In this document: positions 5,765 through 43,462 of the stretch, piece after piece
How the letters are laid out: each line of letters opens with the position of its first letter
Position numbering within the stretch: the first letter of the stretch is position 1
From: a virus
Taxonomy: Duplodnaviria > Heunggongvirae > Uroviricota > Caudoviricetes
Reading direction: 5' to 3' (one strand)
Virus record (IMG/VR): IMGVR_UViG_2883489344_000002
Length of the DNA stretch: 64,000 bases
Position numbers and translations under genes: made by a program
Notes under the pieces: model-generated
What the model was told of the DNA's origin: nothing
Database searches by the model: none
The model's input: only the letters and a program-made list of their open reading frames with translations

Positions 5765-5800
5765 CCTGAAAATAAGAGAAGGCACCGCGTGGGTGCCTTG
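5765..5800 (-). terminator. second hairpin terminator
   Basis: Perfect 7-bp stem AGGCACC/GGTGCCT with a T-rich tail on the minus strand. Confidence 0.4.
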
Positions 5801-5883
5801 TGGGGACTTCAATGAAAGAAACAGTTTATTGCATGTCGGGGACAAACTTCTTTGTCCTCAAATCCATACTTCAAACAGTGGCG

Positions 5884-6162
5884 CTATTCTGAGGCAGTTT
5901 TTTTTCTTTGTCCAACACCCCCCACCGTCACACCGTTCACCCTGTTAACGCTGATGTTGTGGTCATTGATGGTAGCCAGCAAGACGCGCGTTTTCTCCAC
6001 GTAGGCGGGGTAGTCGCCATAGGTTTTCACCGTGAAGGCCGGCATTTGGCACATCCAGGCGCTAACCTGTGCCGGCGCGGCCTCAACCTTAACGTTGATA
6101 CTGGGCGTTGAAGTCGCTGACGGCTTGCTGCTGCACCCTGACAACACCGGCAGGCACAGCAT
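5884..6162 (-). CDS. o-spanin (Rz1-like outer-membrane lipoprotein)
   Basis: Internal start MLCLPVLSGC gives a lipobox signal peptide. The gene is small and S/T/P-rich. It is embedded in the 3' end of the i-spanin gene in another frame. Confidence 0.55.
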   Translation of the reverse strand: MLCLPVLSGCSSKPSATSTPSINVKVEAAPAQVSAWMCQMPAFTVKTYGDYPAYVEKTRVLLATINDHNISVNRVNGVTVGGVGQRKKTASE

Positions 6163-6556
6163 GGCCAGCGCAAAGATCTTGTGCCTGGAGCTGCCGGAGC
6201 TGCTGTTGTGCGGCCTCACTTTCGGCCTGGTAATGCTGGGCTTGCTGCTCATTTTCCTGGTTCTCCTGGTTTAATGCCTCGGTGCGCTGCGCATAGGCGT
6301 CACGCTGGGCGTCTGAAATGGCTTTGCTGGTGGCCAGCTGCTCTTTTTCGTTGGTCAGGGTGGTGATGCTGGTGCGCTGGTTGGCCAGCTGCTCGGCCTG
6401 CACCTGATTGACGTCCTTCAGGTCAGACACCCACAGCCAGCCCGCCACCAGCCCGGCCGCGATCGTCATGCCCATGCAAATCTCCACCTTGGCGCGGGTG
6501 GATAGGCCTGAAAGCAGGCTCCAGCTGGTTGAGAGGGCGGTAAACATGCTCATCAT
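6089..6556 (-). CDS. i-spanin (Rz-like)
   Basis: N-terminal TM segment (ICMGMTIAAGLVAGWLWV) followed by Q/E/A-rich coiled coil. 155 aa. It overlaps the lipoprotein ORF. Confidence 0.55.
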   Translation of the reverse strand: MMSMFTALSTSWSLLSGLSTRAKVEICMGMTIAAGLVAGWLWVSDLKDVNQVQAEQLANQRTSITTLTNEKEQLATSKAISDAQRDAYAQRTEALNQENQENEQQAQHYQAESEAAQQQLRQLQAQDLCAGHAVPAGVVRVQQQAVSDFNAQYQR

Positions 6557-39595: not shown

Positions 39596-40165
39596 ATGTT
39601 GATGGCAGACACTATACTGAGGGACTTGTGGAGAGATCCTCTTCCTGCTGATATCGAGGCTGGGATAACCGCTGAAAAGCTGGTGCTGATGATTCGAGAC
39701 ATCATGCGCACAGACCTGAATGAGCATGAGAAAGGCACCAGACAGCAGGGCGGGCACACATTAAGGGATCATGTCGGTAAGACAAGGCCTGAGATGATAC
39801 AGCGCCTACTCGATGCCGAACGGTTATATGAAACGTCTACCTTTTATCATGGGCAAGAATTTGCTGAGACTGTAGTCGCCAAGGCTATCTTGAGTGATCT
39901 GCATAGGGTCTATAATTGGTACTATAAGATAGACAACCCCCCAGGCGGGGTTATAGCGCGCGCTGGTGGAAAAAAAGATTTTATCCTCATAAAGGTTGAA
40001 AGTAACTTCCCTGTGGGCACACAGGTTAAGTTGCTCAACGATGGTACTTTTGAGGAGGCGATTTGCTCACATGTTTTTGTGAAAATCATTCGCGGAAACA
40101 TTGCCGGACGCAATAAGTATATTGTGACCAGTTTCCCATGCATTCCTAGGCCGGAGGCATCATGA
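39596..40165 (+). CDS. putative toxin-like protein (189 aa)
   Basis: GGAGG RBS. GGHTLRDHVGKT segment. Translationally coupled (ATGA) to a downstream acidic protein. Confidence 0.4.
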   Translation: MLMADTILRDLWRDPLPADIEAGITAEKLVLMIRDIMRTDLNEHEKGTRQQGGHTLRDHVGKTRPEMIQRLLDAERLYETSTFYHGQEFAETVVAKAILSDLHRVYNWYYKIDNPPGGVIARAGGKKDFILIKVESNFPVGTQVKLLNDGTFEEAICSHVFVKIIRGNIAGRNKYIVTSFPCIPRPEAS

Positions 40166-40788
40166 CCACAGCCACCATTGAACGATACCCACATCTTGAT
40201 GAGCTTATGATGGGATTCATCAATCAGGATGCCGAGTCTATGGCCGGCTCCGACAAATATGCAGACATGCTGAAATGCTATTTTGACGTTATGGATCGAG
40301 ATCTTCTGCCCGAGCTGCTGAAAGAGATAGAAGCTTACCAAGCAGAGCATTCTGACAATCTGGTTGAGGATTTTGCCAGAGACTTTCCTTATGGTTACCG
40401 TGTAAGTGAAGCAGAAGAGTTTTTCAGCCTATTAAAGGGTGGCATTGTCACCCAGATTGATAACAAAGAAAAATATCAGGAAGAAGCTGCTGCATGGCAC
40501 AGGGCATTTTGGACTGTTTCTAAAGACGGTGATCCATCTGAGGAAACTGAGGCGACCGTAAAGCCTGACCCGGCAAAAATACAACAATGGCTGCAAAGTG
40601 TGGCAAATTTGTATTCAGTCAATTCGCCAGAATTTGTCGCAGCTCAGGCTGAAGCATTAAGGCTGTTGGGCATTACTGTTGCTGAGCCAGCTTCTCAGAC
40701 GACGCCCACTCAGGAGGATAAGTCGAGTGCGAGTCACGCCGCGTCCTCATCAGCCAAGCCAAGGAAACCCCTTACAGTTATGCGTTAA
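40162..40788 (+). CDS. acidic immunity/antitoxin-like protein (208 aa)
   Basis: ATGA overlap with the upstream gene. D/E-rich. Confidence 0.4.
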   Translation: MTTATIERYPHLDELMMGFINQDAESMAGSDKYADMLKCYFDVMDRDLLPELLKEIEAYQAEHSDNLVEDFARDFPYGYRVSEAEEFFSLLKGGIVTQIDNKEKYQEEAAAWHRAFWTVSKDGDPSEETEATVKPDPAKIQQWLQSVANLYSVNSPEFVAAQAEALRLLGITVAEPASQTTPTQEDKSSASHAASSSAKPRKPLTVMR

Positions 40789-41677: not shown

Positions 41678-42007
41678 TTAGCTCACCAGCTTCAAATCCT
41701 GCTTGCGGTGCTTCTTATGGTCATCATAGAAATTCTCATGAGTTCCAATAGACAGCAAATACAGCTCAAGCTTTCCTTCTAACCAAGAATAGCCCAAAAG
41801 ATACAGCTCTTTTTCGAGAGAGAATTTGTGAACACGCAAAAATTTGAGATCCCCTTTTTTCTGTTCGCCAATCAAGGGATCGGCAATAACGCGTTCAATT
41901 TCATCTTCTACAATACGCAGTTGCTTGCCGCTCAGTTTAGACAATGCTTTTTCAAAGCGACGAGTTTCGTAAACATCAACCTTGTTTACGCTCTGTTCTC
42001 CGGACAT
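41678..42007 (-). CDS. RelE/ParE-superfamily toxin
   Basis: The C-terminal region LKFLRVHKF...YLLGY...LELYLLSIGTHENFY fits the RelE/ParE fold consensus. The start is taken at MSGEQSV. Confidence 0.55.
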   Translation of the reverse strand: MSGEQSVNKVDVYETRRFEKALSKLSGKQLRIVEDEIERVIADPLIGEQKKGDLKFLRVHKFSLEKELYLLGYSWLEGKLELYLLSIGTHENFYDDHKKHRKQDLKLVS

Positions 42008-42212
42008 ATTTCTTGACCCTTCCATTCTCAACTTCACTTTTAGCTAGTAAGGCTTCGAGAATGAAGGAATACGGCAGATCAGGGTTGTCTTCGGCAATCC
42101 TACCTATTTTAGCCCAATGCTCAATCTGCTTTGGTACGCTGCGGCTTGAAACCTCAGCATACACTTTCACATCATCCACAAAGTCCTCATCAAGACGGAC
42201 ACTAATAGCCAT
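41976..42212 (-). CDS. ParD/RelB-type RHH antitoxin
   Basis: MAISVRLDEDFVDDVKVYAEVSSRSVPKQIEHWAKIG matches the ParD antitoxin pattern. 78 aa. Upstream of and overlapping the toxin. Confidence 0.6.
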   Translation of the reverse strand: MAISVRLDEDFVDDVKVYAEVSSRSVPKQIEHWAKIGRIAEDNPDLPYSFILEALLAKSEVENGRVKKYVRRTERKQG

Positions 42213-42554
42213 GGGGTCTACCTCTTCTACTCGGATGTGTTCAAAGGATAGTCCCTTTTATCATCATTTATACGCTTTCCTTGCGTGACTTGATTATGCG
42301 ACAACATGTGTATTAATGCAATCTTTTGTCGCTTTTATGGAGGTTATCGTGCCCTCTGCCTTAGTGCTGTAGTGTTAGAAACATGTTAAAAAGCTGCGGT
42401 TAGGCAGCTTTAGTTTGCTTTACAAAATCACTTACAACTGTTGTAAAGATACAGCTATTTCTAGGCCGACACGGATAAATTCCATTAAACCCAAAATAAA
42501 CATAAATATATTTGTATTGTCCATAAAAACCTTTTTAAAAAAGGTACGCTATAA

Positions 42555-42760
42555 CAAACAGTTATTGGCTTTATAGCGCACATGTGAATAGATTATTGGC
42601 AGTTTGCAGCTGCCCATGCTTGGCGTTTTTTAACAAAAAGTGCTAATTATTCATTTTGCCCTCCTAAATTCCTTGCAAGGTAGAATCCAAAGACTTACCG
42701 TTAATGAACAGTTATTGGCTTTATAGCCTACAGCTTGTAGCAGTTTGCAGCTGCTCAGCA
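42555..42760. repeat. two direct repeats (AACAGTTATTGGCTTTATAGC ... CAGTTTGCAGCTGC) about 150 bp apart in a 750-bp non-coding region
   Basis: Unit 1 at 42555-42614 and unit 2 at 42706-42753. Each is followed by a T-run. Confidence 0.6.
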
Positions 42761-42765
42761 AATGA

Positions 42766-42798
42766 AAACCTGGACTTCTGTCCGGGTTTTTTTTTGCC
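42766..42798 (+). terminator. rho-independent terminator after repeat unit 2
   Basis: CCTGGAC-TTCT-GTCCGGG (with one G-U pair) followed by TTTTTTTTT. Confidence 0.6.
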
Positions 42799-43054
42799 TT
42801 AAGTAAATATCTTTCCATGGATTTGATGAATGTGCAACCACCTGTCAATAATTTAGCACTTTTTGCCTAACCCACCTAGGTCAACCTGTGCTATTTGCCT
42901 TCAATCTCCTGTCTTACTCAGCGTCAGGCTCAATTAAGAAAGCCTGAGCTTAACCACATTTAATTTTATGAAAATAAAGGGTTTTAACTCGCTGCGGCTT
43001 CACTCTTGACGTACTTGCCAGCCCACACTACTGTATGAATATACATATAAATTA

Positions 43055-43462
43055 ATGCAGGTGATTTTTATGGGCTTCCCTTCCCCAGCGCAAGACTACG
43101 CGCGCCCCCGGCTTAGCCTGGATGCTATTGCTCGGGTCTCTATCCCTGCCACCTACTTCATGCGGGCGGCAGACTATTTACCATCAGTAGGTATTCTCAA
43201 AGGCTCAGTATTGGTGATCGACCGCAGTTTAGACCCCAAACACGGATCGCTCCTGATTGCCTGGCTGGGCGGTGAATTTAAGGTTGTGCGTTACGTGAGT
43301 GTGCCGGAGCCGGCATTACAGCGGTTAACAAAAGAGCATGATGTAATTAAATTGAGCGATTATGCGGTGTCTGGCGGTGATGACTCGCCTATCTGGGGGG
43401 TGATTGCGTATGTGCTGTCTGACGTGTCGGGGCGCGTGTTTAATCAAGCACCAGGCATTTAG
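43055..43462 (+). CDS. humD: UmuD'/HumD-like S24 peptidase-family protein
   Basis: GFPSPAQDY...ATYFMRA...VIDRSL...GEFKVVRY...VIAYV aligns with UmuD. Confidence 0.7.
   Translation: MQVIFMGFPSPAQDYARPRLSLDAIARVSIPATYFMRAADYLPSVGILKGSVLVIDRSLDPKHGSLLIAWLGGEFKVVRYVSVPEPALQRLTKEHDVIKLSDYAVSGGDDSPIWGVIAYVLSDVSGRVFNQAPGI

Follow-up and report, generated by a model that had tools for sequence, protein, structure and literature searches.

The dinQ-agrAB locus of Escherichia coli K-12 is a toxin-antitoxin system of type I, where 31 nt at the agrA and agrB 5' ends are antisense to dinQ (Weel-Sneve, 2013; PMC3567139). Genes similar to dinQ (dql) form a family on enterobacterial chromosomes and plasmids, and nucleotide similarity to dinQ in the untranslated region at the 5' end (5' UTR) is the criterion that defines them (Kristiansen et al., 2016; PMC5066626). 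On plasmid pOXA-48, DqlB (DinQ-like B) is toxic, is neutralised by base pairing with agrB, as compensatory mutations demonstrated, and forms with agrB an addiction module (PMC12365149). In the tisB/istR-1 and zorO/orzO systems a divergent small RNA (sRNA) likewise pairs with a short part of a long 5' UTR, without overlapping the open reading frame (ORF) (PMC8309996, PMC5397157). Here we analyze a 64,000-nt stretch of DNA (the window), which belongs to the 101,864-bp replicon CP028039.1 of Nissabacter sp. SGAir0207 (strain description in PMC6687921). This replicon is a distant P1-like phage-plasmid, and its locus at 42385-42795 of the window probably represents a type I toxin-antitoxin module like dinQ/agrB (dql).

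An earlier note on this stretch, made from the letters alone, had flagged tandem repeats with terminators in a non-coding region of 750 bp, which corresponds to an 857-bp gap between a parD/parE-like gene pair on one side and humD on the other. The two-copy composite repeat is real. A 21-nt module A, AACAGTTATTGGCTTTATAGC, is identical at 42557-42577 (copy 1) and 42707-42727 (copy 2), and a 15-nt module B, GCAGTTTGCAGCTGC, is identical at 42599-42613 and 42740-42754. The distance between the copies is 150 nt for module A and 141 nt for module B, in agreement with the approximately 150 bp given before. The copies are dispersed rather than tandem, and the spacer between modules A and B is 21 nt long in copy 1 and 12 nt in copy 2, with a different sequence. 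When the 64 kb were searched on both strands for the 19-mer core with 3 mismatches allowed, exactly 2 matches were obtained, while shuffled sequences give an expectation of 0.01.

Replication iterons had been among the proposals for this region, and a different kind of protein-binding repeat, belonging to replication or partition functions, was considered with them. Two identical 21-mers with a palindrome-bearing partner module, on a low-copy plasmid prophage with partition genes, would suit that proposal. However, iterons would be expected as at least three similar repeats of 17-22 bp beside a rep gene or an origin, while here only two copies lie 150 nt apart without forming an array, there is no rep or par gene beside them, and the identity is limited to two islands with unrelated spacers. 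Moreover, the related loci described below keep the layout and not the sequence, always together with an ORF, a promoter and a terminator, which fits RNA pairing and not a conserved binding protein. Iterons were therefore rejected, and we regard them as extremely unlikely.

The elements of the putative module, in which copy 1 of the repeat lies in the leader of a small minus-strand gene and copy 2 in a plus-strand sRNA gene, are predicted as follows (PWM, position weight matrix):

42432-42524, minus strand: candidate type I toxin ORF of 30 codons plus stop, MDNTNIFMFILGLMEFIRVGLEIAVSLQQL (from the ORF list, read on the minus strand)
42530-42545, minus strand: Shine-Dalgarno sequence AAGG (42533 to 42530), 5 nt before the ATG, within an A/U-rich hairpin ACCUUUUUUAAAAAGGU (sequence reading)
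42385-42411, minus strand: hairpin with U-run, AAAGCUGCCUAACCGCAGCUUUUUAAC, putative terminator of the toxin transcript (GCAGC and UUUUU, read by eye on the minus strand)
42557-42577, minus strand: target in the leader of the toxin, formed by the 21-nt module A of repeat copy 1, with perfect complementarity to the 5' end of the sRNA
42599-42613, minus strand: target in the leader of the toxin, formed by the 15-nt module B of repeat copy 1, containing GCAGCTGC, complementary to the module in the sRNA stem-loop
42708-42795, plus strand: predicted antitoxin sRNA of about 88 nt, with predicted ends (fold, terminator scan and profile)
42673-42701, plus strand: predicted sRNA promoter, TTGCAA (42673-42678), 17 nt, TACCGT (42696-42701) (PWM scan)

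For comparison we used dinQ-agrAB, an IncX3 dqlB locus and three unannotated relatives, namely L098 (ENA ERZ27285327, k141_40338), L107 (Logan SRR13512918) and L193 (Pantoea agglomerans plasmid NZ_CP090210.1).

The flagged region is not non-coding, as its minus strand holds a 30-codon ORF with a Shine-Dalgarno sequence, running from 42524 to 42432, which was called as a gene in one public assembly (Logan). The palindrome reported near 42432, TTACAACTGTTGTAA, is present and represents the final codons of this ORF (L-Q-Q-L-stop). The hairpin reported at about 42383-42410 was also found, at 42390-42411. The terminator scan lists it on the plus strand only, and its reading as a minus-strand terminator was made by eye; an equivalent minus-strand terminator was detected by the scan tool in L098. 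The A/U-rich hairpin around the Shine-Dalgarno sequence appears in the minimum free energy (MFE) folds of the leader, and because it is weak, sequestration of the Shine-Dalgarno sequence is suggested by it without being claimed here. The locus thus holds a small (less than about 35 residues) hydrophobic ORF, read as a single helix, with its own Shine-Dalgarno sequence and putative terminator.

The encoded peptide is predicted to be a single-pass inner-membrane toxin. Its grand average of hydropathy (GRAVY) is 1.0, which places it in the top 5% among the ATG-initiated ORFs of 25-40 residues in the window. DinQ (MIDKAIIVLGALIALLELIRFLLQLLN, encoded on the minus strand) and the window peptide share the motif L-(L/M)-E-(L/F)-I-R, and in a MAFFT alignment LMEFIR of the window peptide is in register with LLELIR of DinQ, ILELIR of DqlB and LEFCN of L098. 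The polar residues E15, R18 and E22 are spaced like E17, R20 and Q24 of DinQ (PMC8309996). In contrast, DqlB (MINLLIIVLRAVAALANALIAILELIRQFID) has a different sequence, and both DinQ and DqlB are more hydrophobic, with a GRAVY of 1.79. The toxins of tisB/istR-1 and zorO/orzO are, in the same way, membrane peptides of small size (about 29 residues) that form amphipathic helices. They belong to other peptide families with other leader structures, however, and tisB is controlled by LexA; Pfam and NCBIfam scans, the only comparison made in this respect, revealed no kinship of the window peptide to TisB or ZorO.

The predicted sRNA consists of a single-stranded 5' seed of about 20 nt (up to 42727), a stem-loop at 42733-42759 that contains the GCAGCUGC module and thus module B, an A-rich linker and a terminator. 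The terminator at 42764-42791 was identified by the scan as a 12-bp G+C-rich hairpin with a 9-U tail. The fold has an energy of -33.5 kcal/mol (z = -4.76), and none of 200 shuffled sequences (0/200) folded as well. Repeat copy 2 begins 6 nt downstream of the predicted promoter, whose geometry is shared with agrB (TTGCAA-17-TAGTAT), agrA, L098 (TTGCAT-17-TAATCT) and L107 (TTGCAT-17-TACTCT); TTGCA is invariant in the promoter alignment. The gene resembles agrB also in that the RNA starts at the repeat and ends in a Rho-independent terminator. Hence, a sigma-70 promoter and a Rho-independent terminator are both predicted from the sequence for this sRNA gene.

Copy 1 differs in these respects from copy 2. 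The earlier note had seen a T-run after each copy. This holds for copy 2, with its 12-bp hairpin and 9 T (42764-42795), while the run after copy 1 (42625-42630) receives no score as a terminator. The folding check proposed in the note gave a similarly divided result, as the same stretch taken from copy 1 folds no better than shuffled sequences (z = +1.05). These data bear on the proposal that both copies are independent sRNA genes forming a trans-acting sibling pair, for example a MicC-like porin regulator, with the small ORF being irrelevant. Copy 2 does show all features of an Hfq-type sRNA, and E. coli possesses two tandem sRNA genes, agrA and agrB. In addition, GGCGTTTTTT follows copy 1, a TATAAC lies 2 nt before the 21-nt repeat and 4 nt ahead of ACAG, and Rfam aligns MicC weakly over the 5' end and the terminator of copy 2 (30 bits, E = 0.071). 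However, the combination of a predicted promoter with conserved geometry, 5' seed, stem-loop and strong terminator is limited to copy 2. The TTGCA(A/T)-17-TAnnnT promoter that is found at copy 2, agrA, agrB, L098 and L107 is missing at copy 1, and in L098, L107 and L193 copy 1 is likewise without a promoter-like site upstream. Furthermore, a small hydrophobic ORF in the same orientation lies beside copy 1 in every locus, and the 17-mer seed does not occur in other Enterobacterales among the 80 of 95 matches listed. A pair of sRNA genes is therefore improbable. A MicC-like sRNA was rejected, since the score of 30 bits compares with a gathering score of 90 for MicC (RF00121) and the similarity covers only the terminator and a portion of the 5' end.

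As a separate observation, the seed ACAGUUAUUGGCUUUAUAGCC (42708-42727) weakly resembles the 5' end of MicC, which we take, from the Rfam alignment, to be GUUAUAUGCCUUUAUUGUCAC.

In the preferred reading as a dinQ/agrB-like module, copy 2 would provide the sRNA with its 5' seed and stem-loop, and copy 1 would be the matching target in the toxin leader. Because one strand carries the sRNA and the other the toxin ORF, a leader that is complementary to the sRNA shows as a direct repeat in the DNA. Module A is located 32-52 nt upstream of the toxin start codon, just before the Shine-Dalgarno sequence, and its duplex with the sRNA has an energy of -31.0 kcal/mol. Module B is located 74-88 nt upstream (duplex -28.2 kcal/mol) and folds as a hairpin in both the sRNA and the leader. 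At the level of sequence, a divergent predicted sRNA could thus pair, by its 5' end, with the leader at a site upstream of the toxin's Shine-Dalgarno sequence. Across the loci compared, cognate sRNA-leader duplexes reached -60 to -77 kcal/mol compared with -13 to -41 kcal/mol for non-cognate ones, and the predicted pairing is specific to the cognate partner.

We also observed that the leader segment GGGCAGCUGC in module B (42607-42616) pairs with the 3' terminator region (42390-42411) through AGCUGCC/GCAGCU in the MFE folds of the full-length toxin transcript. Such a fold-back of the 5' on the 3' end recalls the fbi element of hok mRNA, and may be due to chance owing to the GCAGCTGC palindrome.

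The organization just described corresponds closely to that of dinQ-agrAB. In both loci a toxin of 27-30 residues is encoded on one strand and sRNA genes, or a single one, lie divergently on the other, and the direct repeats in the DNA reflect an sRNA whose 5' end is the complement of a leader segment upstream of the toxin's Shine-Dalgarno sequence. Read on the plus strand, the leader target of dinQ repeats the sequence with which agrA (76%) and agrB (97%) begin. The window locus differs from dinQ-agrAB in having one sRNA gene instead of two and a bipartite complementarity (21 + 15 nt) instead of one block of 31-34 nt. It also differs in lacking detectable nucleotide similarity in the leader, in being borne by a plasmid or phage, and in that no LexA operator was found at the toxin promoter, a feature of dinQ proper that is not needed for dql genes.

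A match in layout is also provided by the IncX3 dqlB locus, which is plasmid-borne and has exactly two repeat copies, 229 nt apart, with a terminator after the second. The distance from the start codon to the target is 75 nt in dqlB and 74 nt for module B of the window. The dqlB-agrB carriers are pOXA-48, IncX3, IncN and IncF plasmids, on which dqlB is often left unannotated owing to its small size, whereas the window lies on a P1-like phage-plasmid. While blastn with the dinQ region returned 2971 plasmids, the window region returned none.

The unannotated relatives extend this comparison. L098 and L107 are short metagenomic contigs found through closer HumD homologues (62-63% identity), and their arrangement upstream of a LexA-boxed humD is the same as that of the window, with unrelated sequence. 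They were the only ones showing this architecture among about 90 loci with humD homologues that were scanned, and a search by neighbouring proteins yielded no relatives. L098 encodes on its minus strand a 27-codon ORF, MATFLVVLEFCNIVLQIVLTVMQMTGK, with a good Shine-Dalgarno sequence and a terminator, and L107 a minus-strand ORF, MAAFLVLLDFCNIVLQIVLTVMQM, with a good Shine-Dalgarno sequence, which is cut at the contig end. On the plus strand both contain a perfect direct repeat, of 20 nt in L098 (GTGAAGACTGGCTCAACGGC) and 22 nt in L107 (TGTTAAGAATTGGCTCAACAGC), with copies 163-166 nt apart and a strong terminator after the second copy. Three positions distinguish the two repeats, and at each of them both copies of a locus carry the same letter. 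Over the 24 codons compared, the two ORFs show 5 synonymous and 3 conservative changes, which is how a coding sequence evolves. L107 in addition shares sequence patches with dinQ.

L193 was found through a weak tblastn match to the L098 peptide and is likewise unannotated, with the peptide MISLATILVALKIIHVTLQIIVAVKQLTGRP. It has a perfect repeat of 22 nt with a distance of 209 nt between the copies, and copy 2 has TTGACC-17-TAATAT before it and a terminator after it. We also note that this locus (2100-2600 of L193, approximately 5780-6280 of NZ_CP090210.1) lies some 1.5 kb downstream from a replication gene of the RepB family.

In every one of these loci (window, L098, L107, L193 and dqlB) the two repeat copies are identical while the repeat sequences differ between loci, so that a layout with co-varying sequence is conserved in five loci other than the window (dinQ, dqlB, L098, L107 and L193). 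The start codon is separated from the target by 73-82 nt in these five, and module B of the window, at 74 nt, occupies the position where their single target lies. A consensus fold of the seven sRNAs gave support for the terminator only. The peptides of L098, L107 and L193 form a group of their own (..CNIVLQIVLTVMQMTGK, ..LQIIVAVKQLTGRP), apart from that of the window, and the seeds of the relatives are akin to agrB (TGTTAAGAA.. compared with TGTTAGATAAGAA..), unlike the seed of the window.

These comparisons also bear on the possibility that the repeat is a chance or decaying duplication without function and the small ORF spurious. In line with this, the exact sequence is known from one example, family models fail, and the peptide is less hydrophobic than DinQ or DqlB. 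On the other hand, the chance expectation for the repeat is very low (0.01), islands of perfect identity stand amid otherwise unalignable sequence, architecture and spacing are conserved in the five other loci, and the substitutions between the L098 and L107 ORFs are biased towards synonymous ones. We consider a functionless duplication unlikely.

Profiles built without any window sequence recovered the locus. An sRNA profile from agrA, agrB, dqlB-agrB, L098, L107 and L193 had its best match within the 64 kb at 42708-42798 on the plus strand (E = 0.0035), and a peptide profile from DinQ, DqlB, L098, L107 and L193 ranked the ORF first among 1842 six-frame segments (E = 0.044). Several results weigh against an assignment to the dinQ/agrB kind, beginning with these profile matches, which are weak, the sRNA score coming partly from the terminator. 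With a profile from DinQ and DqlB only, the window ORF ranked 29th (E = 35), and an nhmmer profile of five toxin mRNAs found nothing at the locus. The peptides of the window, L098 and L193 did not match the curated NCBIfam models DinQ (NF041472) and DqlB (NF041473) at E ≤ 10, while DinQ itself scored 54 bits in the control. Similarly, Rfam AgrB (RF02891) gave no match in the window region at E ≤ 10 and none in L098, L107 and L193 at E ≤ 0.01, while agrA and agrB reached 106-108 bits. The window's own sequence type is a single instance in the databases searched. Identity of the repeat copies could in principle stem from gene conversion instead of selection for pairing. Finally, no convincing sigma-70 site that could serve as the toxin promoter was found in the window, neither by a consensus scan nor by a PWM scan. 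A possible -10 element, AATAAT (42651 to 42646, minus strand), is without an acceptable -35 element. Both the length of the leader and the presence of the two target modules in the toxin mRNA are therefore predictions.

The broader searches gave the following picture. No match to the intergenic region was obtained by blastn in phages, plasmids or E. coli genomes, and megablast with 10 kb gave only an 86-nt match in parD. The 19-mer seed had 0 matches in viral contigs. The 17-mer seed had 95 single matches in genome contigs, which is about the number expected by chance, and the 80 of these 95 that were listed are all in unrelated taxa. In a HMMER search against 1.84 billion representatives the window peptide matched itself only, and tblastn in plasmids found no match for it, nor for DinQ itself, perhaps because of the BLAST low-complexity filter, so that this negative carries no information. 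Degenerate patterns of the toxin codons were absent from viral contigs and gave one chance match in a metagenome (L111), and the terminator pattern was likewise absent from viral contigs. Pfam gave no match for the window peptide, and the sole NCBIfam match was a chance one of 12 bits to a plus-strand ORF. The 5' UTR similarity to dinQ that defines dql genes (Kristiansen et al., 2016; PMC5066626) was not detected for the window by nhmmer or by blastn against plasmids, phages and E. coli. Taken together, the locus would work like dinQ/agrB and is a probable, though distant, relative; by current definitions it does not belong to the family.

Around the sRNA gene we observed a perfect 13-nt inverted repeat, CAAAAAGTGCTAA / TTAGCACTTTTTG, at 42634-42646 and 42853-42865. 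Each arm reads AATAAT-T(T)AGCACTTTTTG on its own strand, like inverted copies of a -10 box with a start region. The plus-strand arm belongs to a promoter-like TTGATG-18-AATAAT that ends at 42852 and points at humD, and the minus-strand arm could be the -10 element of the toxin promoter.

The neighbours of the module are as follows:

41678-42212, minus strand: parD-like/parE-like type II toxin-antitoxin pair, upstream neighbour (Pfam PF11903, E = 3.7e-19; PF15781, E = 3.4e-32)
43070-43462, plus strand: humD (UmuD'-like), downstream neighbour (phrog_811 UmuD-like, E = 1.5e-31), the product of which is labelled peptidase or HumD family in the sources
43006-43046, plus strand: humD promoter TTGACG-17-TACTGT, a neighbour outside the module (PWM scan)

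A LexA-like box, CTGTATGAATATACAT, at 43031-43046 overlaps the humD promoter and has one mismatch to CTGT-N8-ACAG (ACAT for ACAG). Perfect LexA boxes are found at the same place in L098 (2191-2206) and L107 (673-688). No LexA operator is present at the toxin side, the box of humD being the only one resembling CTGT-N8-ACAG (at most 1 mismatch) in the intergenic region; control of the toxin by the SOS response, as in dinQ, is therefore unsupported.

With the ParD/ParE-like pair directly adjoining the putative type I module, two addiction-type systems would stand back to back. Further upstream, adjacent genes at 39596-40788 match Pfam entries for a toxin domain, the bacterial CdiA-CT RNase A (PF18431, E = 1.3e-11), and for an immunity protein, CdiI_2 (PF18593, E = 3e-08), and represent a stand-alone toxin/immunity pair on the phage-plasmid. 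No tRNA genes were found in the 64-kb window.

The P1-like nature of the replicon is evident from its tail sheath, PacA/PacB-like terminase, PmgS, Dmt-like methyltransferase and C1-type repressor; a ParM-type partition protein is encoded as well. This kinship, and a predicted antisense RNA with a duplicated element at the locus, would suit the proposal of the earlier note that the repeats form an immunity switch like immI of P1, taken here as a c4-type antisense RNA, with duplicated target elements on its flanks, that controls an antirepressor operon. In P1 the c4-type RNA, an Rfam family, precedes an icd-ant operon that bears the target elements. Yet none of the Rfam families, among them C4 provided that it is in the library, matched the region at E ≤ 10, and, despite the C1-type repressor and the other P1-like genes, zero families reached the gathering score in the repeat region or anywhere in the 64 kb, which means that any c4-like immunity RNA would be too divergent to detect. 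In addition, an icd/ant-like operon is absent downstream, as the neighbours are humD and parDE, and the same architecture is found on a non-phage Pantoea plasmid and on the E. coli chromosome. Given the absence of an RNA-family match and the wrong neighbours, c4/immI was rejected and has hardly any probability in our view. The general idea of an antisense-RNA locus thus stands, while its proposed forms (two sRNA genes, immI/c4, iterons) do not.

By analogy with the characterised members, we infer the transcription of both RNAs, the toxicity of the peptide, the involvement of RNase III and an addiction function. As in dinQ/agrB and dqlB/agrB, the sRNA would be made constitutively and pair with the toxin leader, which would block translation and/or trigger cleavage by RNase III. 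After loss of the plasmid the toxin mRNA is assumed to outlive the sRNA. The toxin would then be made, depolarise the inner membrane and kill or arrest the cured cell, in a form of post-segregational killing.

It is conceivable that the module is more than a plain addiction cassette, either as an SOS-dependent, damage-triggered membrane toxin coupled to induction of the phage-plasmid, or through an sRNA that acts on a host mRNA. The module lies directly upstream of LexA-controlled humD in three elements, and SOS transcription of the toxin might arise from an unrecognised promoter or by read-through from the divergent side of humD; the sRNA, with its seed weakly resembling the 5' end of MicC, might for its part target the mRNA of a host gene, for example in a porin leader. 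We judge such an additional role to be unlikely.

The reading as a dinQ/agrB-like module accounts for every element flagged earlier and adds an unannotated candidate toxin gene and a candidate sRNA gene to the plasmid. The dinQ-like/agrB family appears to be wider than the NCBIfam DinQ and DqlB models and Rfam AgrB detect, as four loci analyzed here were missed by them. A signature of divergent type I systems that pair in trans emerges, which consists of a perfect short direct repeat with copies 150-230 nt apart, a terminator after copy 2 and, next to copy 1, a very small hydrophobic ORF on the opposite strand. A module of this kind, probable as it is here, is now placed on a P1-like phage-plasmid beside a type II parDE pair, which fits the stacking of maintenance functions on low-copy elements.

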